NCBI GenBank assembly: GCA_021734445.1
Contig: JAIPIY010000001.1
Coordinates: forward strand, 31,849 to 95,848
Source of the DNA: Minisyncoccota bacterium
GTDB taxonomy: Bacteria; Patescibacteriota; Minisyncoccia; Phycocordibacterales; UBA1006
Length of the DNA: 64,000 bases
Direction: 5' to 3'
The notes under the pieces were generated by a model, which was given only the letters and a program-made list of their open reading frames with translations, was not told the origin of the DNA and did not search any database. A program made the translations under genes and the position numbers. Every line of letters starts with the position of its first letter. Within the stretch, counting starts at the first letter, position 1. Shown one piece after another: positions 4,891 to 53,376 of the stretch.

Positions 4891-4964
4891 CCGCCCTTAG
4901 CTCAGTTGGTTAGAGCACAGAGCTTATACCTCTGGGGTCCATGGTTCGAGTCCATGAGGGCGGA
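4891..4964 (+). tRNA. tRNA-Ile with anticodon UAU (tRNA-Ile2 lineage, CAU->UAU)
   Basis: Cloverleaf: acceptor CCGCCCT/AGGGCGG, D-arm GCTC-AGTTGGTTA-GAGC, anticodon stem CAGAG/CTCTG with loop CTTATAC (U33, anticodon T34-A35-T36, A37), T-arm CATGG-TTCGAGT-CCATG, discriminator A. The D-arm and acceptor closely resemble E. coli tRNA-Ile2. No CCA is encoded. Confidence 0.8.
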
Positions 4965-5072
4965 CAAAGCATAGGACATCTTGTCCGATCCATAGCGTGA
5001 CGACGCGAGACGGGCTCGCGCAAAAATTCACCAGAATTTTATATGTGAGAGCAAACAAATACTACTAATCAT

Positions 5073-7560: not shown

Positions 7561-7941
7561 GGGGATGATCGGTATTGACAGGAGGATTCGTTGCATATGC
7601 TGCGTATCGAGCTCGTCTAACTCGTATAACTGGACGAACACTTCAAGTGCAAACTCACTTGGTATCAAATCTCCGTATTTCGCGGGATTTGCTCCAGCGT
7701 ACGCATAATCGCGATGGCTGGTGTCGACACAAACAAGAGTCTCATAGTTTGTCGTTCGGCATAATATTCTGAGGCTGTGTCTATGTACGCGCTTTGATAC
7801 ATAGTCAAGATATAAAAGCTCGATGTGTGCATGTTTTGTCTGTTTCGGACATGTACATATTTAAATTAAAGAAATAGACTACATACTGTAGATTGTATGT
7901 GCACACCTACCTACACGGGGGTTCGATTCCCCCCATCTCCA
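7561..7941 (+). ncRNA. ssrA: tmRNA (ssrA)
   Basis: 5' GGGGATGATCGGTATTGACAGG (compare E. coli GGGGCTGATTCTGGATTCGACGG). 3' tRNA-like end GGGGGTTCGATTCCCCCCATCTCC-A: acceptor GGGGATG/CATCTCC with a G3-U70 pair, T-arm GGGGG-TTCGATT-CCCCC. Candidate resume codon GCA at 7649 (nt 89), ORF GCA AAC ... GCA TAA. Located directly after smpB. Confidence 0.85.
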
Positions 7942-7946
7942 CGAGT

Positions 7947-40311: not shown

Positions 40312-43300
40312 CTATTCTGTAGTAGGTGCTTCGCCTGAATCACTACTTTCTGATTCCGAAGATTCTCCAGGTTGACCCTCATTTGAACTTTCCTCTGCTG
40401 ATTCTTTGGATTCATTAGATTCTTCTACTGTATCTTCTTGTGGTTCTTCATTTACATTTGATTCATCGGGTGCATTTCCAATATTTTCAGCGTTATCAGT
40501 ATCATCAGTATCATCAGTGTTTACATTTGATTCATTTGAAGTATTTTCAGTAGTATCATCTATTATTTCAGATTCATTATTTTCTTCATCCGAGCCATTT
40601 GCATCATCTATATCATCTGTATTATCAGAAGAAGAATTGTAATATATGGTAGAAATATTTTGATTTTGTAGTAATTGTTGTAACTGATCTTTTGTTACAC
40701 AAACATCTTCGATACAAAGCTCGTTAGTTTGAACTTTGTCAGATCGAATTATTTGTACAAACAATTCGCCTATTCCATTCCCCGCATCAGCAAACCAGTT
40801 TCGGATTCTTGAAAGAAATGTTTCATCTGAAAGATTTTGAATATCCAATATTTTCAAGTCAATTTCTTTGATTGCAGCAACAAGTACAGGTGTAATTTGT
40901 GAATAATAAACAGATTTGAGACCTTTTTCATTAGTTGCTACAAGTTCTGGGAAATATTGCTCAAGGTCTTGAGCAAGGAATCCAATTTGTGCATCTGTAT
41001 TTGGTCTGTCATTCCAGTTATACGTAACAGTTTTTAGTTGGAGTACTTTATCTAAGATATTTGTCATATCTTCGATATTTGTTTTTAATCGTTCATCTGA
41101 TGAACATGCGATACCGGTACCGGTGGTAATAGTACACTCTGTAGTGGCTGCTTGGATGCGTACGGATTCAATTGATCCTGTTGCCAAGGTTGAACCAATC
41201 ATGAGTTGATTAGTTGCTGTGTTAGTTGCCCCTTTACCCAATGCGATACTGTTAGAGAATCCTCCGGTTGAAGTGTCGTCACCGATTAAGATAGAGTGGA
41301 AATCTGCGGTGAAGTTGTTAAGGGTAAAGTCTGCTGTTTTATATCCTGCATTGTTTCCAATGAAGATGGAGTTGTTAGAGTTTTGAGAGCCGGTGTCTAC
41401 TCCATTGGATGCTCCAGCAAGATAGCCAATGAAGGTGGAGTTGTATGAGTTAGCCGCCGCAGAGCCAGCATTTTGTCCAAAGAAATTTGAATTAGAAGCA
41501 GAGGTTGCCGAAGCACCAGCATTCTGCCCAAAGAAGTTTGAGTTATTAGCATCGGTTGCCGAACTACCAGCGAAGGTACCAAAGAAGTTTGAGTTATTAG
41601 CATTAGCTGAAAAATTTCCTGAATATTCTCCAAAAAAATTTGAATGATAAACACTTGAAGAACTCGCCCCAGCAAAACGACCCAAAAAATTTGAATGGTG
41701 TGCATTAGTTGAATTTTGACCAGCATATTGACCTAAAATAATATTACCACCTGAACTAGTCGATCCCTGCTCCGCTCCTGTTAGTCCAGAAGAATATAGG
41801 GTATTACCTGCTGTTCCAACAGAAATTGGAGAAGATGTTTGTGCCGCCCAACTCATCACCCCTGCATTAGTTGATGAAAGTACATATCCATTTGTCCCAG
41901 GATATGCTGTTGGTAAAGTATATGATTCACCTTGGAATTTCCACGTAGTAATACTGTCTGGAAGTGCAAATTGGTTTGAAGCAGCGATAGCGCCGAAACC
42001 GAGAGCAATGGCATTCGAGGTATTACCTGTTGAAACATCTGCAAATGAACCGATAAGTGTGTTATTTATACCGGTAAGATTAGTGTACCCCGTACGATAT
42101 CCTAAAGCAGCATTATCAGACCCAGAAATAGTTTGAGAAAGTGATTGAAACCCATTAGCCGTGTTTCGGTTATTTGTTACTGCTTCAAGTGCTGCGTATC
42201 CAAATGCTGTGTTAAAAGACCCTGTTTGATTAAAGGCTATAGTTTGGTAACCATGCCCTGTATTATATTCACCGGTTGTGTTTGAAAATAATGACTTATA
42301 ACCAGTAGCAGTATTAAAAGACCCTGTGGTATTAAAACGAAGAGCGTAGGCTCCATGTGCAGTATTATAAAACCCTGTGGTATTAGCAAAAAGCGATTCC
42401 AGCCCAGTTGCAGTATTATTATTCCCTGTAGTATTAGAATACCCTGACTGATATCCAATAAATGTATTAGCATTTGGTCCAGAGTTATTTAACCCTGCAT
42501 CTATCCCTAGAAATGTATTGTTATTTTCGGTAAGACCCGTAAGTGATGTAGTTGTTTCCCACGATAATTGCCCAGCCCCATCAGTAGTCAAAATTTCTCC
42601 ATTCCCACCATCAGCTCGTGGGAATGTGTACCCTGAGGTTCCATCAAAATCAAATGTTATTCCAGAAGCATAATTTAAAAGTATCTTGGAATAATCTCCA
42701 GTGGAAGAATTACCCGCATTTAAATCAAAACCATCCTCTGTTATAGTAAATACATTTTGCATATCATCTCCGAATGAATCTTCTACCTGGAGTCGCATTT
42801 CGATACTCTCAGGTTCAAAGCTAGCAAATGAAAGGTAATTATTATCAAAATCAAGATATCCAACAAGTGTTGTTTGATCAGACAACCCAACACCACTGGC
42901 ATCTCCATTAAAAATGAGATTCATACCAGCAGATGGTCCACTATCGGGAACGTGTATCATCCCAGAACCAATGAAAAATTCATTTTCTAAAACATCATCT
43001 ACGAATACACCTGTGATATATCCAGGAACTAATGTTGCTGTTCCTACAAGGAAACGATCCTCATTTCGGAAGAATAATTCATCCGTCGTAATATCCCCAT
43101 TCCCATCTAAATACAAAACACTGTTTGGATCTAATCCGTCATACAGACTAATAGCACATGCTGGATCGGTTGGACCAGTACACAGAGTGTCCCCTACAGG
43201 ATCCAATGTTTCTCCTGGTGCAATAGCAGAAACCACAATACCACCATAGATAGTGAGAGCGACTACAACAAACAAAAAGAGACTATATTTTTTACATACT

Positions 43301-43314
43301 TCAAAAAATTTCAT
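40312..43314 (-). CDS. Giant secreted tail-fibre-like repeat protein with C-terminal peptidase-S74 intramolecular-chaperone domain and acidic tail
   Basis: Signal peptide (MKFFEVCKKYSLFLFVVVALTIYG; start at the internal Met). About 40 short NT..G/NTA.G repeats (NTATGLESLFANTTGFYNTAHGAYALRFNTTGSFNTATGY...). C-terminal SSDERLKTNIEDM...VTYNWNDRPNTDAQIGFLAQDLEQYFPELV matches the endosialidase/tail-spike S74 auto-cleaving chaperone domain. Terminal ~110 aa are D/E/S/N-rich. Confidence 0.6.
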   Translation of the reverse strand: MKFFEVCKKYSLFLFVVVALTIYGGIVVSAIAPGETLDPVGDTLCTGPTDPACAISLYDGLDPNSVLYLDGNGDITTDELFFRNEDRFLVGTATLVPGYITGVFVDDVLENEFFIGSGMIHVPDSGPSAGMNLIFNGDASGVGLSDQTTLVGYLDFDNNYLSFASFEPESIEMRLQVEDSFGDDMQNVFTITEDGFDLNAGNSSTGDYSKILLNYASGITFDFDGTSGYTFPRADGGNGEILTTDGAGQLSWETTTSLTGLTENNNTFLGIDAGLNNSGPNANTFIGYQSGYSNTTGNNNTATGLESLFANTTGFYNTAHGAYALRFNTTGSFNTATGYKSLFSNTTGEYNTGHGYQTIAFNQTGSFNTAFGYAALEAVTNNRNTANGFQSLSQTISGSDNAALGYRTGYTNLTGINNTLIGSFADVSTGNTSNAIALGFGAIAASNQFALPDSITTWKFQGESYTLPTAYPGTNGYVLSSTNAGVMSWAAQTSSPISVGTAGNTLYSSGLTGAEQGSTSSGGNIILGQYAGQNSTNAHHSNFLGRFAGASSSSVYHSNFFGEYSGNFSANANNSNFFGTFAGSSATDANNSNFFGQNAGASATSASNSNFFGQNAGSAAANSYNSTFIGYLAGASNGVDTGSQNSNNSIFIGNNAGYKTADFTLNNFTADFHSILIGDDTSTGGFSNSIALGKGATNTATNQLMIGSTLATGSIESVRIQAATTECTITTGTGIACSSDERLKTNIEDMTNILDKVLQLKTVTYNWNDRPNTDAQIGFLAQDLEQYFPELVATNEKGLKSVYYSQITPVLVAAIKEIDLKILDIQNLSDETFLSRIRNWFADAGNGIGELFVQIIRSDKVQTNELCIEDVCVTKDQLQQLLQNQNISTIYYNSSSDNTDDIDDANGSDEENNESEIIDDTTENTSNESNVNTDDTDDTDNAENIGNAPDESNVNEEPQEDTVEESNESKESAEESSNEGQPGESSESESSDSGEAPTTE

Positions 43315-43348
43315 ATGACTATAGTATAGCATGTTTTTTTTAAAAAGA

Positions 43349-44689
43349 TTACAGAATTTTATGAATCCAATCTTGTGCTTGTTCTTTTGTTGGAGCTTCG
43401 GCAAAAAACCGAACAATAGGTTCTGTGTTTGATGCCCTAACATGCAACCAACCGTTGTCAAAATTCACCTTGATACCATCAGTTTCATCTATAGAGAATT
43501 CTGAAAATATTGTTTTCACTTTTTCAAGATACATTTCAACTTCCTGTCGTGAAGAAACTTCTATTTTGTCTTTTACAATTTCATATTTGGGAATTTCAGC
43601 AACCAATTCGGATAACGTTTTTCCTGTTACCGCAAGCATTTCTAAAATTAATGCAATACCCACATAAGAATCCCGAACATATCCAATTTCTGGCCAAATA
43701 ATACCACCATTCCCTTCTCCACCGAACACAGCCTGATTTTCTACCATTGCATTCGCGACATGAATTTCTCCAATTTGCGTTCGCATGATTTTGCAACCAA
43801 ATTCATTTGCGACATCATCAAACATTTTTGATGTCGAAAGATTTGCAACTACTGGACCCCCTTGTTTTTCTGTACGTGTTTGCAAATAATGACGCATTGC
43901 CAATACTAATGTATATTCTTCCCCAATGGGATTTCCCTTCTCGTCAACAATGGCCAACCTGTCCGCATCAGGATCCTGGGCAAAACCAACCTGTGCACCA
44001 GTTTCGCGAACCTTTTGACCCAATACATCTAAAAATTCTGGCAACGGTTCTGGGTTTCGTTCAAATTCTCCCTCTATTTTTTCATGCAGATATATTGCGT
44101 CAATACCCAATTGCGCCATCATGTATGCATCCGCGTCAATCCCCGCCCCATTTCCCATATCTATAACAGTTGTTAATTTTGCATTTTTTATTACATCCAC
44201 CTGAACATGTTTCAAAATCTTATCAATATGATTTTTACCAGCGTCATCTTTTTTTACAACAGAGCCAGGTGTAGTATCCAACAAAGGATTCTCGCCAGAT
44301 TCATATTGTTTGATAATCTGATTCATAACAGATGGGTCTAAAAATAATCCAAGAGGGGTAAAAAACTTTAATCCATTCCAGGGTGCAGGATTATGACTGG
44401 CGGTGATCATAATACCAGCATCAGCGGATTCTGTGCGAACAGTAAATGCTAATGTAGGAGTTGCGGTGATCCCACAATGAATCACCGTGCAACCATATTC
44501 CCGCAATACACGTATTACAATTTCAGAAATCTCATTACGGCTTTTACGTGTATCAGTACCCAATATTACCTTTTTTGGTTTTACCACATCTAAAAATATT
44601 TTTATGATCTGTTCTGTGTTTTCAGGCAATAATGATTTACCCCAAATACCTCGAATACCTGAAATACCCAGCTTTAATGTGTTTTGCAT
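43349..44689 (-). CDS. Phosphohexomutase (phosphoglucosamine/phosphomannomutase)
   Basis: Active-site ITASHNPAPWNGLKF (phospho-Ser loop), metal-binding DPDADR, sugar-binding GEEYT-like loop. 446 aa. Confidence 0.85.
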   Translation of the reverse strand: MQNTLKLGISGIRGIWGKSLLPENTEQIIKIFLDVVKPKKVILGTDTRKSRNEISEIVIRVLREYGCTVIHCGITATPTLAFTVRTESADAGIMITASHNPAPWNGLKFFTPLGLFLDPSVMNQIIKQYESGENPLLDTTPGSVVKKDDAGKNHIDKILKHVQVDVIKNAKLTTVIDMGNGAGIDADAYMMAQLGIDAIYLHEKIEGEFERNPEPLPEFLDVLGQKVRETGAQVGFAQDPDADRLAIVDEKGNPIGEEYTLVLAMRHYLQTRTEKQGGPVVANLSTSKMFDDVANEFGCKIMRTQIGEIHVANAMVENQAVFGGEGNGGIIWPEIGYVRDSYVGIALILEMLAVTGKTLSELVAEIPKYEIVKDKIEVSSRQEVEMYLEKVKTIFSEFSIDETDGIKVNFDNGWLHVRASNTEPIVRFFAEAPTKEQAQDWIHKIL

Positions 44690-44747
44690 ATGTCATCATT
44701 GTACCAAGAAAAAACACCTCTTGCGAGATGTTTTTTCTTGATATCTA

Positions 44748-46490
44748 TTATCCTTCACAACTGATACATACATTTTCATCACCTGAAGAATTGTGCACTT
44801 TAATTTCTTCAGCATCTTTTTTCTTGTGCTCCATTTCTTGTAGTTTTTTACGTCCAAATTGTTGTGCAGCATTCATACTGTGTTGATAGTATAATGTTTT
44901 GATTCCTTTTTCCCATGCGTATAGATAGAGAGAATTTAAATCTTTAGTAGAGATAGTTGGATCAATCATAATATTCAATGACTGAGCCTGGTCGATATGT
45001 TTCTGACGTGCAGCAGCCTGGTCGATAATAATTTTTTGATCAATTTCACTAAACGTACGAAACACCATTTTTTCATGGTGAGTAAGAAAATCCAAATGCT
45101 GTACAGAACCATCATTGTCTCGAATATTATTCCATACATCAGTGGTGTTCATACCTTTTTCTTCTAACAGTGCTTCTAATGAAGGATTTTTTATTGTCAC
45201 TTTCATTTTATCAACATCTTTTACAAAGGCATTCGACATAAATGGTTCGATACTTTGTGATACTTGACCCAAAATAAATGCTGACGACGTTGTTGGAGCA
45301 ACAGCCAACAAGGTTGTGTTACGACGGCCATACCCTTTTAATATTTCTGGTTCGCCATATTCTTTTGCTAATTGCACCGATGCTGCATATGAACGTTCAT
45401 GAATAGTTTTAAATATTTCTTCGTTCAAATGCATTGCTTTGTCGCTTTCAAATGCAATATTATTTTCTTGCAGAAATGAATGCCATCCTAAAACTCCTAA
45501 TCCTAATGCACGATGTTCTTTTGCAAATTTATATGCTCGTTGCATAAAATAAAAAGCAGATTGTTTTTGCGGATCAGCACTGTCTCGTAGTGATTCCAAT
45601 CGAACCAAAAAGTCTGAAATAACGGTATCCAAAAACATAACCAATGTTTCCACCGCATCAGTATCTCTCCATTCGTTATAATGTTTTAGATTCATGGATG
45701 ACAAACAACATACAAATGAAATATCATCATTGGTTGGTAAACAGATTTCTGAACAAAGATTACTACCATGAATTTTCATTTCTTTGTCTTTGTATACATC
45801 AACCGTATTATTATTTACGGTGTCTGAAAAAAGAATATACGGATATCCAATTTCTGTTCTTCGTTGAATAACCTTTGCCCAAACTCTTCGTTTATCTTGA
45901 TCTCCATCAATCATGTCTTGTAACCAGTTGTCTGTAACGGTAACTGCATAGGTTGATTCTTGGATGGGGTGACCTTCTTTACCGATATCAAGAAATTCTT
46001 CGATATCACCATGTTCCAAAGGTAAATAAGGAGCAAAGTGCCCACGTCGGACAGTTCCCTGACTAACGATATTAATCAAATTATCAAACAATTCCATAAA
46101 ATGTACAGCCCCTGAAGAATGACCGTTGTCAGAAATAACTGAACCGCGAGGACGTAATCCAGCAAAATGACCAGCGGTTCCCCCACCATATTTTGTCATC
46201 ATACCTACTTCGGCATGGGTATACAAAATACGAGACATATCATCAGCAACATAACTAGAAAAACAACTAATTGGTAGACCACGAGTCAACCCGTAGTTTG
46301 ACCAAACAGGAGATGCCAAAGAATAAAATCCTTTGGACATATAATCATAAAATTTATCAGCAAATCCTGGTTTATTCAGATACTTTTCGGCAATATCTGC
46401 GATTTCTCGGATACGTTCTTCGGCAGTTACACCATCACGCAAATATCCTTTTGCTAAAAATTTTCTACTGTTTTCGTTAAGCCAATACAT
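44748..46490 (-). CDS. nrdA: Class I ribonucleotide reductase alpha subunit lacking an ATP-cone
   Basis: ISCFSS, GGGTAGHFAGLRPRGS, SSGAVHFM, NLCSEI (catalytic Cys/Glu) and a C-terminal CISCEG redox tail. Only 580 aa, with no N-terminal ATP-cone. Confidence 0.8.
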   Translation of the reverse strand: MYWLNENSRKFLAKGYLRDGVTAEERIREIADIAEKYLNKPGFADKFYDYMSKGFYSLASPVWSNYGLTRGLPISCFSSYVADDMSRILYTHAEVGMMTKYGGGTAGHFAGLRPRGSVISDNGHSSGAVHFMELFDNLINIVSQGTVRRGHFAPYLPLEHGDIEEFLDIGKEGHPIQESTYAVTVTDNWLQDMIDGDQDKRRVWAKVIQRRTEIGYPYILFSDTVNNNTVDVYKDKEMKIHGSNLCSEICLPTNDDISFVCCLSSMNLKHYNEWRDTDAVETLVMFLDTVISDFLVRLESLRDSADPQKQSAFYFMQRAYKFAKEHRALGLGVLGWHSFLQENNIAFESDKAMHLNEEIFKTIHERSYAASVQLAKEYGEPEILKGYGRRNTTLLAVAPTTSSAFILGQVSQSIEPFMSNAFVKDVDKMKVTIKNPSLEALLEEKGMNTTDVWNNIRDNDGSVQHLDFLTHHEKMVFRTFSEIDQKIIIDQAAARQKHIDQAQSLNIMIDPTISTKDLNSLYLYAWEKGIKTLYYQHSMNAAQQFGRKKLQEMEHKKKDAEEIKVHNSSGDENVCISCEG

Positions 46491-46516
46491 ATGTCTTTAA
46501 TATAAATAATGAATAA

Positions 46517-47818
46517 TTAAAATAAATCTTCGCTGGTAATACTCTTACTTTTTTTATTATAATTGATAGACCTCTTGTTAAAGAAATCCCCATGTTTTGT
46601 AGCAATTACCTCATCATAGAACCAATCAGACTCTTTCAAAAAAGTTGCATCGGTAGAAAAAATCTTCTGAATGCCAATACTTTCTAATGACCTATTAAAC
46701 CGATCTTTAATAAATTCCAGCACTACTACTTTTGACATAAAATCCAATTCCCCTTCTTCAAAAATCCATTCCACAACCCCTTTTTCTGCTTCAAATGCTT
46801 CATGGCACAGTTTAACAACCTGTTCATGAAATTCATCGTCAAACCATTCAGGATGTTCTTCTTTGATAATGAGAATTAAATCAATACCAAACAAACCATG
46901 AATTTGCTCTTCTTTTGATGTTGCCTCTACAGCATTTGAAATACCTTTAAATAAATTTTTGTGTTTATTAAAGGACATCATGATCAAGAACTGAGAAAAC
47001 AACGAAACATGTTCGATGAACAATGCAAACAATAAAATAGATTGACTATATTCCCGATTATCGTCACTGCGTGCATTTTTCAAAGCCTTATCAAGATATG
47101 AAACACGATTGATTAACGCAGGAAACTTTTGAATATTTTGAAATTCTTCATTTAACCCTAAAATTTCAAGCAGGTGTGCGTACGCATCTGTGTGACGCAC
47201 TTCACTTTCCGCAAAAGTTGCCCCCACTGCCCCTATTTCTGGTTTTGGCATTTTTTTGTACAAATCCCCCCAAAATGTTTTTACTGCAACTTCAATCTGC
47301 GCAATCGCAAGCATACAATTTTTGATCACATTTCTTTCTTTTTCACTCACGTTCACTCGGAAATCTTGGACGTCGCTTACAAAATTAAATTCTGTATGAA
47401 TCCAATAGGAATGTCGGATTGCATGCAAATATTCATATAATTCTGGATATTCGTAAGGTTTTAGATACACACGTTTTTTAAAGATATCTCTTTTTCTTTC
47501 TTGTGCACGTTGTTGACGATAGAGAATGTAGGATTTTGCTGTTTTTGCAAAATTAAGCTCGATCAATACCATTTCAACATAATCTTGGACTATTTCTACA
47601 TGAGAAATACAATCAGTAACACCCTGAGACACCGCAGATTCAAGTAATTTATCTACCACCCGCTCTGTTATTTTTTTTGCATCATCTTCACCGCCTTCCC
47701 CTACGGAATGCATTGCCTTCATGATTGCATGAGTAATACGATCCATATCAAATGGTACGATTTCGCCATTTCGCTTTTGGATGTTATCAAGAATTACTTT
47801 GGTTTTATCTAAAGACAT
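46517..47818 (-). CDS. nrdB: Ribonucleotide reductase beta subunit (NrdB) with an N-terminal ATP-cone
   Basis: N-terminal VILDNIQKRNGEIVPFDMDRITHAIMKA (ATP-cone). Ferritin-like core with ESEVRHTDAY (E-x-x-H plus the radical Tyr four residues later) and EEQIH (second ExxH). Confidence 0.8.
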   Translation of the reverse strand: MSLDKTKVILDNIQKRNGEIVPFDMDRITHAIMKAMHSVGEGGEDDAKKITERVVDKLLESAVSQGVTDCISHVEIVQDYVEMVLIELNFAKTAKSYILYRQQRAQERKRDIFKKRVYLKPYEYPELYEYLHAIRHSYWIHTEFNFVSDVQDFRVNVSEKERNVIKNCMLAIAQIEVAVKTFWGDLYKKMPKPEIGAVGATFAESEVRHTDAYAHLLEILGLNEEFQNIQKFPALINRVSYLDKALKNARSDDNREYSQSILLFALFIEHVSLFSQFLIMMSFNKHKNLFKGISNAVEATSKEEQIHGLFGIDLILIIKEEHPEWFDDEFHEQVVKLCHEAFEAEKGVVEWIFEEGELDFMSKVVVLEFIKDRFNRSLESIGIQKIFSTDATFLKESDWFYDEVIATKHGDFFNKRSINYNKKSKSITSEDLF

Positions 47819-47845
47819 ACAAGGATATACAAAATAAAAACTAAT

Positions 47846-47915
47846 AATGTGTGTATGAACGTTTTTTTAAATTCATCTCATCCGAACAGTGAACAATGTG
47901 TGTATACAGTATACA
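47846..47915. promoter_or_regulatory. Two copies of AATGTGTGTAT, one overlapping a 15-bp palindrome, upstream of nrdBA (candidate operator)
   Basis: AATGTGTGTATGAAC at 47846-47860 and AATGTGTGTATACAGTATACA at 47895-47915 (TGTATAC-A-GTATACA palindrome), 30-100 bp upstream of the nrdB start. Confidence 0.3.
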
Positions 47916-48065
47916 AAGGATGCAATCATACAACAAGTTTTTTGCTGTTTTTCTACCATTACGAAACGAAAACTACTACCAATCAAACGACACCCCAGAA
48001 AAATCCTACTCTCAGCCGTCAAATATGATTCTTGGTGAAAAAAATTCTTATACGGCAGATAAAAA

Positions 48066-48100
48066 ATAAAACCCTGTTACATCTAGTAAGCAGGGTTTTA
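48066..48100 (-). terminator. Terminator downstream of the VIT-family gene
   Basis: AAAACCCTG(C)TTA...TAACAGGGTTTT hairpin with flanking A/T runs. Confidence 0.4.
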
Positions 48101-48116
48101 TTTTTTATCTTTTTTA

Positions 48117-48650
48117 TTAAATTACCAATCCAGATAATAACGATCCAACACCATAAGCAACCAAAGCAGCAAAAGAACCGACAAATAATGTCTCAAATAT
48201 TGATGCAATAACACCATGTCCTGATATTTTACTTTTCAATAGACCTAATACAGCCAAAGTTAATGCAGTACATACCGATGCCATGGTAAAACTATCAAAT
48301 GCCAAACCTGGGAACCATCGTGCGACCAAAAAAACGATCAATGGCATAAACCCAAAGAAACAAAACGATAAAAACGTCGCCATACCATTTTTCAAAGGAA
48401 TCATAAAATGGGTTCTATCTTCTTTTGTTTCACCTGAAGCGCGTTCATAGTCTTCTTCTGCCCGTGAGGATAAATAATCCCCAGAACCCATAGAAACACC
48501 GTCGGCCAACAGATTTGCCAATCCAAGGACAATAATCAACCCTGCAGGGGCTCCTGCACCCACCGCACTGGCAATAACTGCAAATGTAGTAATAATTCCA
48601 TCAAGACCGCCATAGACGATGCTTTTAATATATTTTCCCAACATAGACAA
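48117..48650 (-). CDS. VIT1/CCC1-family iron/manganese transporter
   Basis: [19 protein letters not shown] and multiple TM helices. 177 aa. Confidence 0.6.
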
Positions 48651-48667
48651 AAAATTTAAGATAATAA

Positions 48668-51600
48668 TTATTTTGATTCAGTTTCAAACGCTGTATCAAT
48701 GATCCCCTTTGTAACAGAAAACGGCTCAGAAGTAAATACAGGAGTATATGATTCATCTGCATTTTTTGCTTCGATGGTAATATAATAGTTTCCATTTGCT
48801 ATCAAACAATAATATCTTCCTCTTTCATCAATAATTACGTGCTTGATTTCTTTTTGCAGTTTTGCAGAAAATACACGAATAATTCCAAATGACAATGGAA
48901 CACCACGATGCGTAACCGTTCCATGCGGATGTGGTTTTAATAACGTAACACGAACAAAAAAGATGAGAATATATGCGACAAATACAATAATATTTAATGT
49001 TGACGGTAATACAAACAATGTCCATGTTGCAATTCCAAAACCAATCCAAAAGAATAGGCTGGCTATTTTAACCAATATGGCTTCATGTTTCACATCAAAA
49101 CTCATGACACCCATTTCTTTTTTCGCAAATTCATTCCAATTAAATTTCAATGGATCCATGGGAATATTGTGTTTGATTACTTGCCCTTCTTCGGTGATGA
49201 TTATCTGTCCTCCAAAATACAGATTGTCATATACTGCGTCTTTTGTAGTATTTGCCAGTTTTTGTGATGGGAATTGATAATCTGTTTTGTGAATCACAAG
49301 GGTATAGGTTCCTGGTTTCACCAAAAATCCATACCGACCATCCAAATCAGTAATAGAAGTTGCTACTTCGTTACCGTTTACATCCATCAACATCACATAT
49401 GCTGGATCAAGAGGTTGTTTGGTTACTGCATCATATACAACCCCCCATTTTTCTACTTTTTTCTTGAGACCAAGACCCGACAGTAGGAAATTCCACAATC
49501 GCATAGGTACCGTAGATAACTGTGGTAACAATGCCATGCCTGCGGTTGCAATACCGGCAACACTGGCCAAGATACCTAATGTGGTCATTGTTTTACCAGT
49601 AGTGCTTTGCACAAAATCAGTTACAGAAGCAACTATTTCTTCAATGAAATCAGTGAATCCTGATGATGAGCCATCTGACCCCTGATTATCCGTAGTTGAT
49701 GATAAGGTATCTTCATTATCATCAAAAGGAAAATCTTCAAATTCCTCTTCAGTATCTTCCATATCTTCTTCATCTATGGGCTCATCTTCGTCTACCGGGT
49801 CTTCGGTTGGTGATTCTGGGGTTGGAGTATTTGGTGAATCAGTAGGCTCTCCTGTTGTTGGTGGCTCACCGGTAGATGTAGTTGTTGGAACAATAATAGC
49901 CGAACCTCCAGAAGAAGATGTGCTATCTGTATTTGAATCTTCTTCCTCATCTTCTGGCTCTACTGCTTGAGTAATAGCAAATGATGAAAAAGAGGTGGCA
50001 TTAAAAATACATCGATTTTTACTATCAATAGTACACTGAGTTAACGCAGACCAAGAGCTTGATTCTGGGGATTTGTGAAATACTGTATATGTTTCTCCTA
50101 TGATAATTCCGGGTATATTTTCAAGCTGAATTTCAACAGACTGAGAAGCCTGTAAATTACTGTTTGGTAATCCAAAAGAAAAACTACGCAGAACTTCTTG
50201 ATTATCAATACCGGGTAGTGTAGTAAGGCCCAAATCATCTATTAACGTCAGGGCTTCAAAATTTGTTTTACCTAAATATCTAAATTCAGTCCCTGCATCA
50301 ATCGTAATTCGATCATTAATAGAAATTGAATCAAAGACAATAGCATTATTAAACAATGCGCGTATACCATTTGTTCCTTCGAATCTCTCTCCCCAACCCT
50401 CATTCAGGGGTTCATATATTCCTGATCTATACAAAGACCAAACAAGATCATCTCCAGAAACAGTGTAAGAATTAGTTGCATCAAGCCAAGAAATTTGAGA
50501 ATTATCAACAGCATTAGGGTTCATATACCCATATCCATATCCATACGTGAATTCATTCCCAGGAGCAGAAGATCCACCAGATGTATCATATTTTGAAACT
50601 TCTAATTTCCATCCAGCAGAAGGGGCCGTATCTATATGAAGCACATGCGGAACATCTTCAGATAATACAAAATCCAACCCATACATGCTCGTAAAAGAGT
50701 CTCCTAATAAATCCATTCGAAACCAAGCACTACCATCTACAAGCCTTTCAACTGATGTATTATAATTCAATGGATTACCATCATCCGAATATGCCACATA
50801 CAATACTCCATCCGAATCAGCTTCCATTTTAATATATTGAGGAGCATGACTTGAAAAACCTTGTGCGCCGACAAAAACACCTCCACCAGAAGAAACATCT
50901 TTTACAGAAACATGCCCGCCTCCATATGCATAGTCCTGATATGCAATATACAAACTATCATCGACAGATACCATATCAAAAGAACCCGATATAGTTGTAT
51001 ACAATGGATGTAATAGAATTGATTCCCACTCTAATGCCAAAGTTTTCACATCAATACGATACAAAGAACCATCATAATATTTATAAGCAACATAGAGATC
51101 ATCATTATCATCAATAGAAAAACTCAATACTGACATAGCCCCGGTAGCAACAACCTCTGTTGTTGGTCCTTCTACATTTTCCCAATCAGGTCCATTGTCA
51201 TATTTTAAAACACGCAGAGTTCCCGTATCATTAATAGCAACATGAACAACGTCCTGTGAATCCAGAGCGATTGCATGATCATACATAGTAGCAAGAGTCA
51301 TAATAGGACCAGCACCAATCACTTGCCAAGAACCACCAACCAATTTAATCACCGTGGGCCCAGTAGTTCCCTGGAATAAAACATAGGGCACATCCTGAGA
51401 ATCCAAAGCAATCTTTGGTCGGGAACCCGTAAATCCCGTTTCCTGAAATGTATTCCATGACCCCTCTGTGTATCCAACAACTTTTATGGCACCTGAAAAA
51501 TTATCCACATACGCCACAGCAATTTTATCATCTGAACCTCTTGCCATGGAAAACCCTTGTGCCAGACCAACCGATGTAGTAGGAAAAATATTTTCTGAAA

Positions 51601-51838
51601 TATCAACCCATACTGGATTTGAAACCATTCTATATCCCGCTAACTGTCCCAAATCCCAACCATATCCGTATCCATAACCATATCCATAGCCATATCCCCA
51701 ACCAACAGACCCTGTTTGCCGTGCAAACTGAGCAAAAGCAACACCCGAACTGGCAATCAATCCAATAATCAGAATAGCAATGAAACTTTGTTTTTTTGTA
51801 ACGAAAAAATTGTGTATTTTTTTTATGTGCTGGATCAT
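48668..51838 (-). CDS. Giant (1056 aa) surface protein: N-terminal GY-repeat module, beta-propeller-like repeats, acidic linker, TM segments, C-terminal carboxypeptidase-regulatory-like domain
   Basis: Signal peptide then [28 protein letters not shown]; a second GYGYGY block; repeated ...LYVAY/LYIAY blade-like motifs; D/E/T/S-rich linker; hydrophobic helices; C-terminal [39 protein letters not shown]. Confidence 0.6.
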
Positions 51839-51894
51839 AATGATTTTTTTATAGTAATAGCTTGCGTCCTATAGTATACTATACACACAAAAAT

Positions 51895-53376
51895 ATGCAT
51901 AGAGTATCTTCTTTTCTACAACAACATAGTGTGACCATTATTTTATTTGGTATTCTTATCTTTGGAGGATATATCCGACTACACAATCTTGGTGAACCAT
52001 CGCTATGGATTGACGAAGGTTATTCCATCAATGCTGCACAACAGATTTTAAAACACGATGTACCATTGTTGGAATCTGGTCAGATGTATACCAACCAACC
52101 CCTGGCATCATATATTGTTGCCGGGTCAATAAAGATTTTTGGCTTTGATCCTTATTCCCCATGGAGCGCGCGATTACCCTTTGCATTATTTGGAATATTC
52201 AATATTCTTATGGTTTTTTTGTTAACCAAGAGATTATTTGATGACCAATGGATTGCGTTAGGGGCTGCATTTTTTACTGCCTTTTTCCCATGGGAAATTG
52301 CATGGGCCAGACAAGCCCGAGGATACAGCATGTTGCAATTCTTTCTCTTGCTTTCTTTTGATCATGTAATTGGATTTATTCAAGAAAGAAAAACCTATCA
52401 TGCACTATTAGCCAGCATTTCTTTTCTATTTGCTTATTTCAGTCATAATCTCGCTATTGCTTTTTTACCGGGATTATTTTTGGTTCTTGGGCTATGGATG
52501 TTATTGGGCATTCAAAAAATATCTTGGAGAAAATCTTGGCCATTTTTATTATTATCCATTGCCGCAATAGCAGTCGGGCAATCGTGGTTGCAAAATCTTG
52601 ACATTATTAATTATATAGAATTTTATAATCGATTTATTATCGAAAATATGCCATGGATATTTGGATTTGGATTCATAGGATTTATTTTGGCGATTTTTCA
52701 AAAAAGATATATCGTATCAGGTATTCTTTTATTAGGAACCACCACTATTGCCTATGTTATTATTGCGTCATATGGAGTAACATTACAATATCGATATCTT
52801 GTGCCCCTGATCCCCTTTTTAGGAATTGGATGTATTTATTTTTTATATGATATTTTTCATAAAATAATCAGTGCGACAAAAAGGTATTCATTACATACTA
52901 TTGTTTCCCCTATTGTGTGTATTATTTTTTGTATCTTACTGGTTATAACAAATCAATCTGTATTTCACCCAACATCGCAACTAGATACCGGTTCCCCACA
53001 GCCAGATTTTAAACATGCCTACGAATATATTAAAGAAAATAAAAATCCTTATGACGTAGTTGTCTCTCCTTATGCACATTTAACAAATATCTATTTAGGT
53101 TATCCTGAAACACTATTACCCATATCATTAACTGGACGAACACAAGAATTTAATCTCACCATAACAAAAGAAAATACTGATTATTATACAAATGCCCCTA
53201 TTGTACAACAAGATGAATTTTTAAATTTCATACATAACAATAATGGATATATTATTCTAGACAGCATGGCAATTTCAAGAATTCCAGAAATAATGCAGAC
53301 AATTCAGTCACAAAAACTGCAATTAGTATTTTTGAAATATCAAAATACGCTAGGAATTTGGGTTTTTAAATTTTAA
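51895..53376 (+). CDS. GT39/ArnT-like (PMT_2 family) polyprenyl-phosphate-sugar-dependent glycosyltransferase
   Basis: Multi-TM. SLWIDEGYSINAAQ, FGFDPYSPWSARLPFALFG, FPWEIAWARQARGYSMLQFFLL. Start taken at ATG 51895 (the track starts at TTG 51862). A paralog lies at 62901. Confidence 0.7.
   Translation: MHRVSSFLQQHSVTIILFGILIFGGYIRLHNLGEPSLWIDEGYSINAAQQILKHDVPLLESGQMYTNQPLASYIVAGSIKIFGFDPYSPWSARLPFALFGIFNILMVFLLTKRLFDDQWIALGAAFFTAFFPWEIAWARQARGYSMLQFFLLLSFDHVIGFIQERKTYHALLASISFLFAYFSHNLAIAFLPGLFLVLGLWMLLGIQKISWRKSWPFLLLSIAAIAVGQSWLQNLDIINYIEFYNRFIIENMPWIFGFGFIGFILAIFQKRYIVSGILLLGTTTIAYVIIASYGVTLQYRYLVPLIPFLGIGCIYFLYDIFHKIISATKRYSLHTIVSPIVCIIFCILLVITNQSVFHPTSQLDTGSPQPDFKHAYEYIKENKNPYDVVVSPYAHLTNIYLGYPETLLPISLTGRTQEFNLTITKENTDYYTNAPIVQQDEFLNFIHNNNGYIILDSMAISRIPEIMQTIQSQKLQLVFLKYQNTLGIWVFKF

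Follow-up and report, generated by a model that had tools for sequence, protein, structure and literature searches.

A probable class Id ribonucleotide reductase operon with an ATP-cone on NrdB in a Paceibacteria bacterium, and a candidate control element upstream of it

Results

Layout of the locus

The window examined here is a 64-kb stretch (64,000 nucleotides, nt) of contig JAIPIY010000001.1 from a Paceibacteria bacterium of the candidate phyla radiation (CPR). The genes of interest are nrdB and nrdA, which encode the β and α subunits of a class I ribonucleotide reductase (RNR), together with the DNA upstream of them. The locus had previously been described from its letters alone (the sequence-only reading), and the open reading frame (ORF) call confirmed both genes where that description had placed them; they lie on the minus strand, with nrdB ahead of nrdA (Table 1). 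Strong terminator hairpins stand on both sides of the pair, which argues for an independent two-gene operon; the hairpin that follows nrdA has a minimum free energy (MFE) of −24.7 kcal/mol and a z-score of −8.42. With the predicted promoter and the sequence box described below included, we regard it as highly probable that nrdB and nrdA make up a self-contained operon for a class Id (NrdAi/NrdBi) RNR in this organism.

Immediately upstream of the operon, whose enzyme is expected to be Mn-dependent (see below), is a gene of the VIT1 family (Fe/Mn transporters), at 48117–48650 on the minus strand. A general, conserved pairing of VIT1 with the Mn-dependent RNR was considered and rejected: the adjacency was seen only in the window and in two related loci, L001 and L081.

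Table 1. Features of the nrdB–nrdA locus, in coordinates of the window. A point in the strand column means that no strand applies.
Feature	Position	Strand	Details
nrdB	46517..47818	−	433 amino acids (aa); ORF call, Pfam, 5OLK match
ATP-cone domain of NrdB, aa 12–105	47504..47785	−	PF03477, E 7.3e-20, profile positions 2–87 of 88
Metal-binding R2 core of NrdB, aa 116–390	46649..47473	−	PF00268 (Ribonuc_red_sm), E 3.7e-57
nrdA	44748..46490	−	580 aa; ORF call, Pfam
Intercistronic spacer nrdB/nrdA, 26 nt	46491..46516	−	holds ATTATTCA
Intrinsic terminator, 19-bp hairpin	44702..44743	.	flanking A and U runs; directly 3' of nrdA
Bidirectional terminator, 20-bp perfect hairpin	48057..48110	.	arms 100% complementary; between VIT1 gene and nrdB promoter
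Predicted −35, TTGTTG	47931..47936	−	17-nt spacer to −10; conservation
Predicted −10, TTTG-TATACT	47908..47917	−	invariant in window, L144, L001, L081, L082
Predicted 5' leader, ~85 nt	47819..47903	−	A/U-rich, unstructured, no Shine-Dalgarno
RNR box ATTATTAG	47841..47848	−	starts 30 nt upstream of nrdB ATG
11-mer copy 1, ATACACACATT in gene sense	47895..47905	−	begins 3 nt after −10; covers predicted start
11-mer copy 2	47846..47856	−	last 3 nt (ATT) are the first nt of the ATTATTAG box
7-1-7 palindrome TGTATACAGTATACA	47901..47915	.	TGTATAC in tandem; one arm is the −10

NrdB and NrdA

The Pfam matches to NrdB bear out the proposal that β carries an ATP-cone ahead of its R2 core (Table 1). 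The protein aligned with NrdB of Leeuwenhoekiella blandensis (Lb; PDB 5OLK) from residue 12 to the C-terminus (E 1.4e-175), with 41% identity in the cone and 75% in the first 217 residues of the core. The motifs ESEVRHTDAY and EEQIH occupy residues 204–213 and 303–307, and the 5OLK alignment identified E176, K180, W183, E206/H209, Y213, E269, T300 and H307 as the signature residues of the R2 core. These were compared with the definitions of the NrdBi signature given by Rozman Grinberg et al. (2019; PMC6754362). The first metal ligand is Glu176, not Asp, and is aligned with Lb Glu170. Trp183 and Lys180, within the sequence IEVAVKTFW, correspond to Lb Trp177 and Lys174, and at the level of sequence Tyr213 and Thr300 fall at the positions of Lb Tyr207 and Thr294. 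In NrdBi proteins the Trp is strictly conserved, with the Lys three residues before it in the characterised subgroup, and the Tyr at the radical position is kept but held off the metals by the conserved Thr; the characterised enzymes have a Mn2(IV,III) cofactor and no tyrosyl radical, and are activated by superoxide (PMC6754362). Because all NrdBi signature residues are present, Mn2(IV,III) is expected instead of a di-iron/tyrosyl radical cofactor, and it would be assembled with superoxide and function without a tyrosyl radical. The sequence-only reading had assigned a di-iron/Tyr-radical core to NrdB, which is most likely wrong, though the Tyr is there.

The cone was checked at the residues of the cone–cone interface and the phosphate contact given in PMC5794259. 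The equivalents of Lb Asp73, Lys89, Ile92, Arg95 and Arg102 are kept (D79, K95, I98, R101 and R108), and two further positions show conservative exchanges (Lb M80 to I86 and Lb I93 to L99). By homology with the L. blandensis, Facklamia ignava and Flavobacterium johnsoniae enzymes, ATP would leave β as a dimer that forms an active α2β2 complex, and dATP bound to the cone would drive β into an inactive β4 tetramer. It counts against this assignment that both cofactor and allostery are read across from homologues that are about two-thirds identical, and just 41% identical in the cone itself.

The α subunit had been described as lacking an ATP-cone, and this proved correct: Pfam shows Ribonuc_red_lgN and Ribonuc_red_lgC alone, with no match to PF03477 at E up to 0.01. 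The best solved relatives, 6DQX (E 1.7e-213) and 6DQW (E 1.8e-178), align from residues 1–2 of the query, so no N-terminal domain is missing from NrdA. For these structures, and for the coneless class Id β structure 6CWO, the PDB tables give generic molecule names only; we take 6DQX and 6DQW to be the α subunits of Actinobacillus ureae and F. johnsoniae, and 6CWO to be β of F. johnsoniae. The NrdA translation contains SNLCSEI, TLYYQ and a C-terminal CISCEG with the cysteine pair CISC (CxxC). In class I RNRs, Asn-x-Cys-x-Glu is catalytic, the YY pair serves radical transfer, and a pair of cysteines is found at the C-terminus. Judged by its sequence, NrdA is a class Id (NrdAi) catalytic subunit.

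Occurrence of the arrangement among relatives

NrdB is 100% identical to a protein from a metagenome-assembled genome of Candidatus Pacebacteria. Both cone and R2 core are present in all 120 of the 120 listed homologue clusters of NrdB. Among species-representative genomes, a scan turned up 80 loci with an NrdB relative, all in Patescibacteria, and wherever the downstream sequence was long enough (79/79 loci) the cone-bearing nrdB was directly followed by nrdA. In this lineage, then, the cone on β and the nrdB–nrdA order are both unexceptional. The earlier description of the cone on β as rare does not hold here; as for the reversed gene order, the order itself stands but its unusual character does not. 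An ATP-cone on β is the norm across a large group of bacteria that are uncultured and have small genomes, and an RNR that depends on Mn and on oxygen or superoxide says something about how bacteria that are often called fermenters are exposed to oxygen.

The core of the window NrdB is 75% identical to the flavobacterial core, and many CPR relatives are no closer, at 58–75% identity overall. These sequence identities suggest that the operon may have been transferred horizontally between phyla.

Predicted promoter and leader of nrdB

The region upstream of nrdB was compared with that of four close relatives, L144, L001, L081 and L082, whose NrdB proteins are 94%, 91%, 87% and 85% identical to that of the window. 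L144 came from a protein-based scan of metagenomes; an exact search of metagenomes for the promoter pattern gave 0 matches. Identity to the window across the whole upstream region is 76%, 66%, 64% and 46% in the four relatives. The hexamer TTGTTG is identical in the window, L144, L001 and L081 and reads TTGTTC in L082. In the window and the first three relatives the intervening spacer is 64–76% identical, while the −35, the −10 and the box ATTATTAG are invariant; in L082 the box reads ATTATCAA. We predict from this conservation that TTGTTG-17-TATACT is the nrdB promoter. Transcription would start ~7 nt after TATACT, at about 47899–47903, giving a leader of ~85 nt that is predicted to be A/U-rich and unstructured. 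The sequence TTTTTGTATA(A/C)T was the strongest motif common to the nrdB upstream regions of 83 loci, where its distance from the ATG is either 20–24 nt (leaderless nrdB) or about 50 nt, and −10-like hexamers are typical of gene starts within the window.

The leader folds with an MFE of −6.8 kcal/mol (z +1.54), and 192 of 200 shuffled sequences fold at least as well. No covarying structure was found among the close relatives; the alignment fold consists of 5 weak pairs.

None of the 59 genes called in the window has a sequence resembling a Shine-Dalgarno at −18 to −5. A strict −10 hexamer ends 4–11 nt ahead of the start codon in 17 of these 59 genes, which suggests that leaderless genes are common and that a leader of 85 nt is unusual. 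Several other features of the leader were considered and rejected. TATATC, 5 nt ahead of the ATG, is too near the start codon for a proximal promoter and is not found in L001. An upstream ORF, MNLKKRSYTHY, that ends at the TAG of the box has no equivalent in L001 or L081. Translation of ATTATTAG as an N-terminal extension of NrdB is in frame in the window and out of frame in L001. The database protein at L081:3001-4398 (P0003, 465 aa) is 32 residues longer than its relatives; its start has probably been called too early, since the extra residues would be read from the leader, which is conserved and non-coding, and from its box.

A box upstream of nrdB and nrdA

The conservation described above singles out the box ATTATTAG, rather than the 11-mer repeat that had been noted earlier, as the candidate control element upstream of the operon. 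The pattern TTAT[TC]AG occurs 21–38 nt before the nrdB ATG in 23/83 loci versus 8/392 other genes, and several of these other genes proved to be nrdA. In AT-rich loci, TTAT[TC]AG was found ahead of 16/50 nrdB, 6/50 nrdA and 2/212 other genes (Fisher p 4e-11, nrdB versus other genes), and the pattern ATTA-N-Y-A-R ahead of 12/50 nrdB, 34/50 nrdA and 13/212 other genes (Fisher p 4e-20, nrdA versus other genes). Across Paceibacteria (loci L001–L052), the box stands about 22–32 nt ahead of the start codon of nrdB and nrdA alike, as it does for nrdB in the window. A position near both start codons, one of them inside the operon, would fit an action on the mRNA (translation) better than an action on a promoter.

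The repeat and the palindrome

The sequence-only reading had drawn attention to an 11-mer that occurs twice, 49 bp apart, and adjoins a 7-1-7 palindrome, and had interpreted the arrangement as a repressor operator. The sequence facts were confirmed: AATGTGTGTAT (the plus-strand form) has exactly two copies in the window at this distance, the 11-mers are identical, and the match extends to 14 nt with one mismatch. The window contains 16 exact direct repeats of at least 11 nt at most 100 nt apart, of which this pair is one, versus 3–4 in Markov-shuffled windows. For palindromes whose 7-nt arms stand 0–3 nt apart, the count is 44 versus 30.6 expected (maximum 49). Neither the repeat, which is weak, nor the palindrome, which occurs at chance frequency, is significant on its own. 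A tandem TGTATAC is automatically an inverted repeat, since GTATAC is self-complementary.

Conservation of the motif in orthologous upstream regions was checked and failed, which speaks against the operator. Copy 1 matches at 8, 9, 8 and 4 of 11 positions in L144, L001, L081 and L082, about equal to the surrounding spacer. Copy 2 matches at 5, 5, 6 and 4 of 11, at or below the spacer average in every case; three of its matching positions are the ATT that opens the box, and the remainder is not conserved. The right arm of the palindrome is altered in all four relatives, and the left arm is the conserved −10. A second TATACT-ATACACAC is present at 51875–51888, 14 nt ahead of another gene's ATG, and this recurrence suggests a start-site context rather than an operator. 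The supposed operator would then resolve into the −10 as an arm of the palindrome, the start-site region as copy 1, and a non-conserved stretch abutting ATTATTAG as copy 2.

At this second site (51875–51897, plus strand) the ATG at 51895 is in frame with a 504-aa ORF, which probably starts later than the TTG listed for it at 51862. The site at 51875 also belongs to a palindrome, TATAGTATACTATA, within a region of divergent promoters.

Two further patterns in this region were tried and discarded. Fur-type operators have the consensus TGATAAT-n-ATTATCA. The Fur-family box shares the 7-1-7 geometry, but 3/7 positions match per half-site and the second arm is not conserved in the relatives. The other pattern, three GT(G/T)C repeats with apparent covariation from genome to genome, does not hold in L144 (GTGC, GTTT, GTTC).

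Searches for NrdR and known RNA regulators

The earlier statement that the motif differs from the canonical NrdR box holds. No NrdR-box core (C-w-A-n-A-T-n-T-w-G) was found within 250 nt upstream of the window nrdB with one mismatch allowed, and the 7-1-7 geometry of the palindrome is odd. The same search was positive upstream of nrdB in L048, L069 and L073 (for example CCACTATATATAGTGG), so NrdR control and a cone on β can coexist, in three CPR lineages. When the six-frame ORFs of the window were searched with phmmer for NrdR or a second ATP-cone, NrdB alone was found, and with the NrdB cone as query only; the E. coli NrdR query, an approximate sequence, missed the cone of NrdB itself. Searched with the same queries, the flanking DNA of 83 loci gave neither an NrdR-like ORF nor a further one with an ATP-cone.

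An Rfam 15 scan of the window at gathering thresholds returned tRNA and tmRNA only, with no match in the leader. At E up to 10, all weak matches except two of the weakest fell on the terminator hairpin at 48057–48110, and none fell in the leader.

Structured leader RNAs in more distant relatives

In clades whose NrdB is 58–65% identical to that of the window, the nrdB leader is GC-rich and conserved (for example L061:5859-5997, L053:5781-5997 and L132:1337-1500). A covariance model built from the first two hairpins of this leader found 20 instances in genome loci and 32 in metagenome loci. All 52 matches lie upstream of nrdB and on its strand, at 106–585 nt from the ATG where this was measured, and none is in the window clade. 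Because MAFFT misaligned helix P1, its covariation was tabulated by script. P1 occurs in at least 8 sequence versions with pairing kept in all of them, among them CACACGA/UCGUGUG, CGCACGA/UCGUGCG, CACUCGA/UCGAGUG and GCAAGAGAAG/CUUCUCUUGU. Helix P2, GUGUC[GGAGG..]GACAC, is nearly invariant, with UA, UG or CG as its closing pair. For the Kaiserbacteria-type leader the folding energy is −40 kcal/mol (z −3.8); its alternative long-range helix extends to the nucleotides immediately ahead of the box. Rfam gave no match for these leaders at E up to 1, and no account of an RNA linked to RNR in these bacteria came up in the searchable literature. The leader of these relatives looks like an undescribed cis-regulatory RNA, a candidate riboswitch or attenuator for RNR.

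Other features of the window

A tRNA-Ile with anticodon UAU, uncommon in bacteria, is encoded at 4891–4965, and a tmRNA with the tag ANSLGIKSPYFAGFAPAYA at 7561–7942. Two proteins of ~1050 aa flank the region (48668–51838 and 40312–43461, both on the minus strand). They are probably surface proteins; one has acidic linkers of low complexity and, near the N-terminus, a residue run.

Discussion

Readings of the upstream region

We tentatively propose that ATTA-N-Y-A-R is an undescribed element for post-transcriptional control or ribosome recruitment that stands mainly before RNR genes, and that distant relatives would exert the same control through a structured leader ending at the same box. On the same tentative view, the element would act in genomes with many leaderless genes and no Shine-Dalgarno sequences, and copy 2 of the 11-mer would be the variable 5' flank of the box. 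Several observations weigh against the promoter and box as we read them. The −35 matches TTGACA in 3/6 positions, which is why a consensus promoter scan gave no nrdB promoter. The copy of the box before the window nrdA, ATTATTCA, ~26 nt from the ATG, is degenerate and fails the strict ATTA-N-Y-A-R pattern; the box counts come from related loci, which are not independent events; and the box also precedes rplJ, nusG and mscL in single loci. Finally, the promoter reading does not account for the perfect 11/11 match between the two copies, which is confined to this genome.

This identity can be approached in two ways. The copies of ATACACACATT and the palindrome could be the operator of an NrdR-independent repressor that binds over the −10/start and at a site 49 bp downstream. 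The exact 11-mer is indeed confined, within the window, to the nrdB upstream region, where it overlaps with the −10/start; three relatives retain copy 1 moderately well (8–9/11), and each copy resembles its partner in this genome more closely than it does its counterpart in the relatives. We nevertheless consider the operator unlikely: copy 2 retains just 4–6/11 positions even where NrdB is 94% identical, the right palindrome arm is not conserved, neither element exceeds chance for 64 kb, and no other promoter in the window carries an exact copy, while a spacing of 49 bp (~4.7 helical turns) would put the two sites on different faces of the helix. Alternatively, the repeat may be a functionless scar of an insertion or duplication, similar to a target-site duplication, that lengthened the leader in a small clade and was kept or re-homogenised only here. 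In the clade whose NrdB is ~70% identical, a stretch of about 20–25 nt takes in the −10, a start region (ACAC/ACAT) and TTATTAG, whereas in the window clade about 60–70 nt separate the −10/start region from the box; the two 11-mers flank exactly the extra 40–50 nt, and that segment is poorly conserved. Relatives with the long leader lack the repeat, however, so a single old event needs later homogenisation in the window genome, and the 38 nt between the copies neither resemble a mobile element nor recur in the window. A later-homogenised scar may still be the simplest account of the 11-mer identity, a possibility that the sequence comparison leaves us to favour with considerable doubt.

Two further readings are less probable than either. 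NrdR acting through diverged boxes would fit the usual location of NrdR boxes at the promoter/start region of RNR genes (PMC9110341) and the canonical boxes before nrdB in L048, L069 and L073, yet the window lacks the box core even with one mismatch, no NrdR-like ORF was found there or in the flanks of the 83 loci with the approximate query, and its palindrome is an odd 7-1-7 whereas the NrdR box is an even 16-bp palindrome; we give this reading very little credence. Equally improbable is that the window leader is a nucleotide-sensing riboswitch or attenuator. The structured, covarying leader upstream of nrdB in more distant relatives is what makes the idea worth stating. The window leader itself, by contrast, folds worse than its shuffles, has no match in Rfam and yields only the few weak pairs of the alignment fold, and, at E up to 1, the covariance model built on the relatives matched neither the window nor any of L144, L001, L081 and L082.

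The structured leader RNA of the relatives is the most promising lead from this work, though it lies outside the window. Across these bacteria the RNR operons show varied upstream solutions, namely leaderless genes, leaders that contain the box, NrdR boxes and structured RNA, which makes them a good system for gene control without Shine-Dalgarno sequences.

Comparison with known systems

The NrdR system, by which RNR operons are usually controlled at transcription, resembles the window motif in location, with tandem boxes at the promoter/start, usually overlapping the promoter or start region of RNR genes (PMC9110341). It differs in form: its boxes are 16 bp long with a conserved C and G 9 bp apart and form a pair ~31 bp apart (PMC9110341), whereas the window has a direct repeat at 49 bp.

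The enzyme itself is of a known type, as the RNR with an ATP-cone on β was already described and structurally solved in 2018. Control by an ATP-cone through the radical-generating subunit was discovered in the L. blandensis enzyme (Rozman Grinberg et al., eLife 2018, PMC5794259). The survey published with it counted 93 ATP-cone NrdB proteins in RefSeq, mostly from Flavobacteriales, and every species then known to have such a protein also had another RNR (PMC5794259, 2018). L. blandensis NrdAi/NrdBi (5OLK, 6SF4; PMC5794259), the nearest relative known, has the same architecture as the window enzyme, with β made up of an ATP-cone followed by the R2 core and a coneless α; its host is a flavobacterium, and that of the window a CPR bacterium. 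The Grx-ATP-cone-NrdB of F. ignava (PMC6187632, PMC6754362) is likewise an NrdBi with the ATP-cone on β, and its Mn2(IV,III) cofactor was shown to be catalytically relevant (PMC6754362). It carries an additional N-terminal glutaredoxin (Grx) domain, whereas the window NrdB begins directly with the cone. The core of the coneless class Id β structure 6CWO matches the window NrdB with E about 1e-93. Unlike the window protein, β subunits of the 6CWO type provide no overall activity control through β, because they have no ATP-cone.

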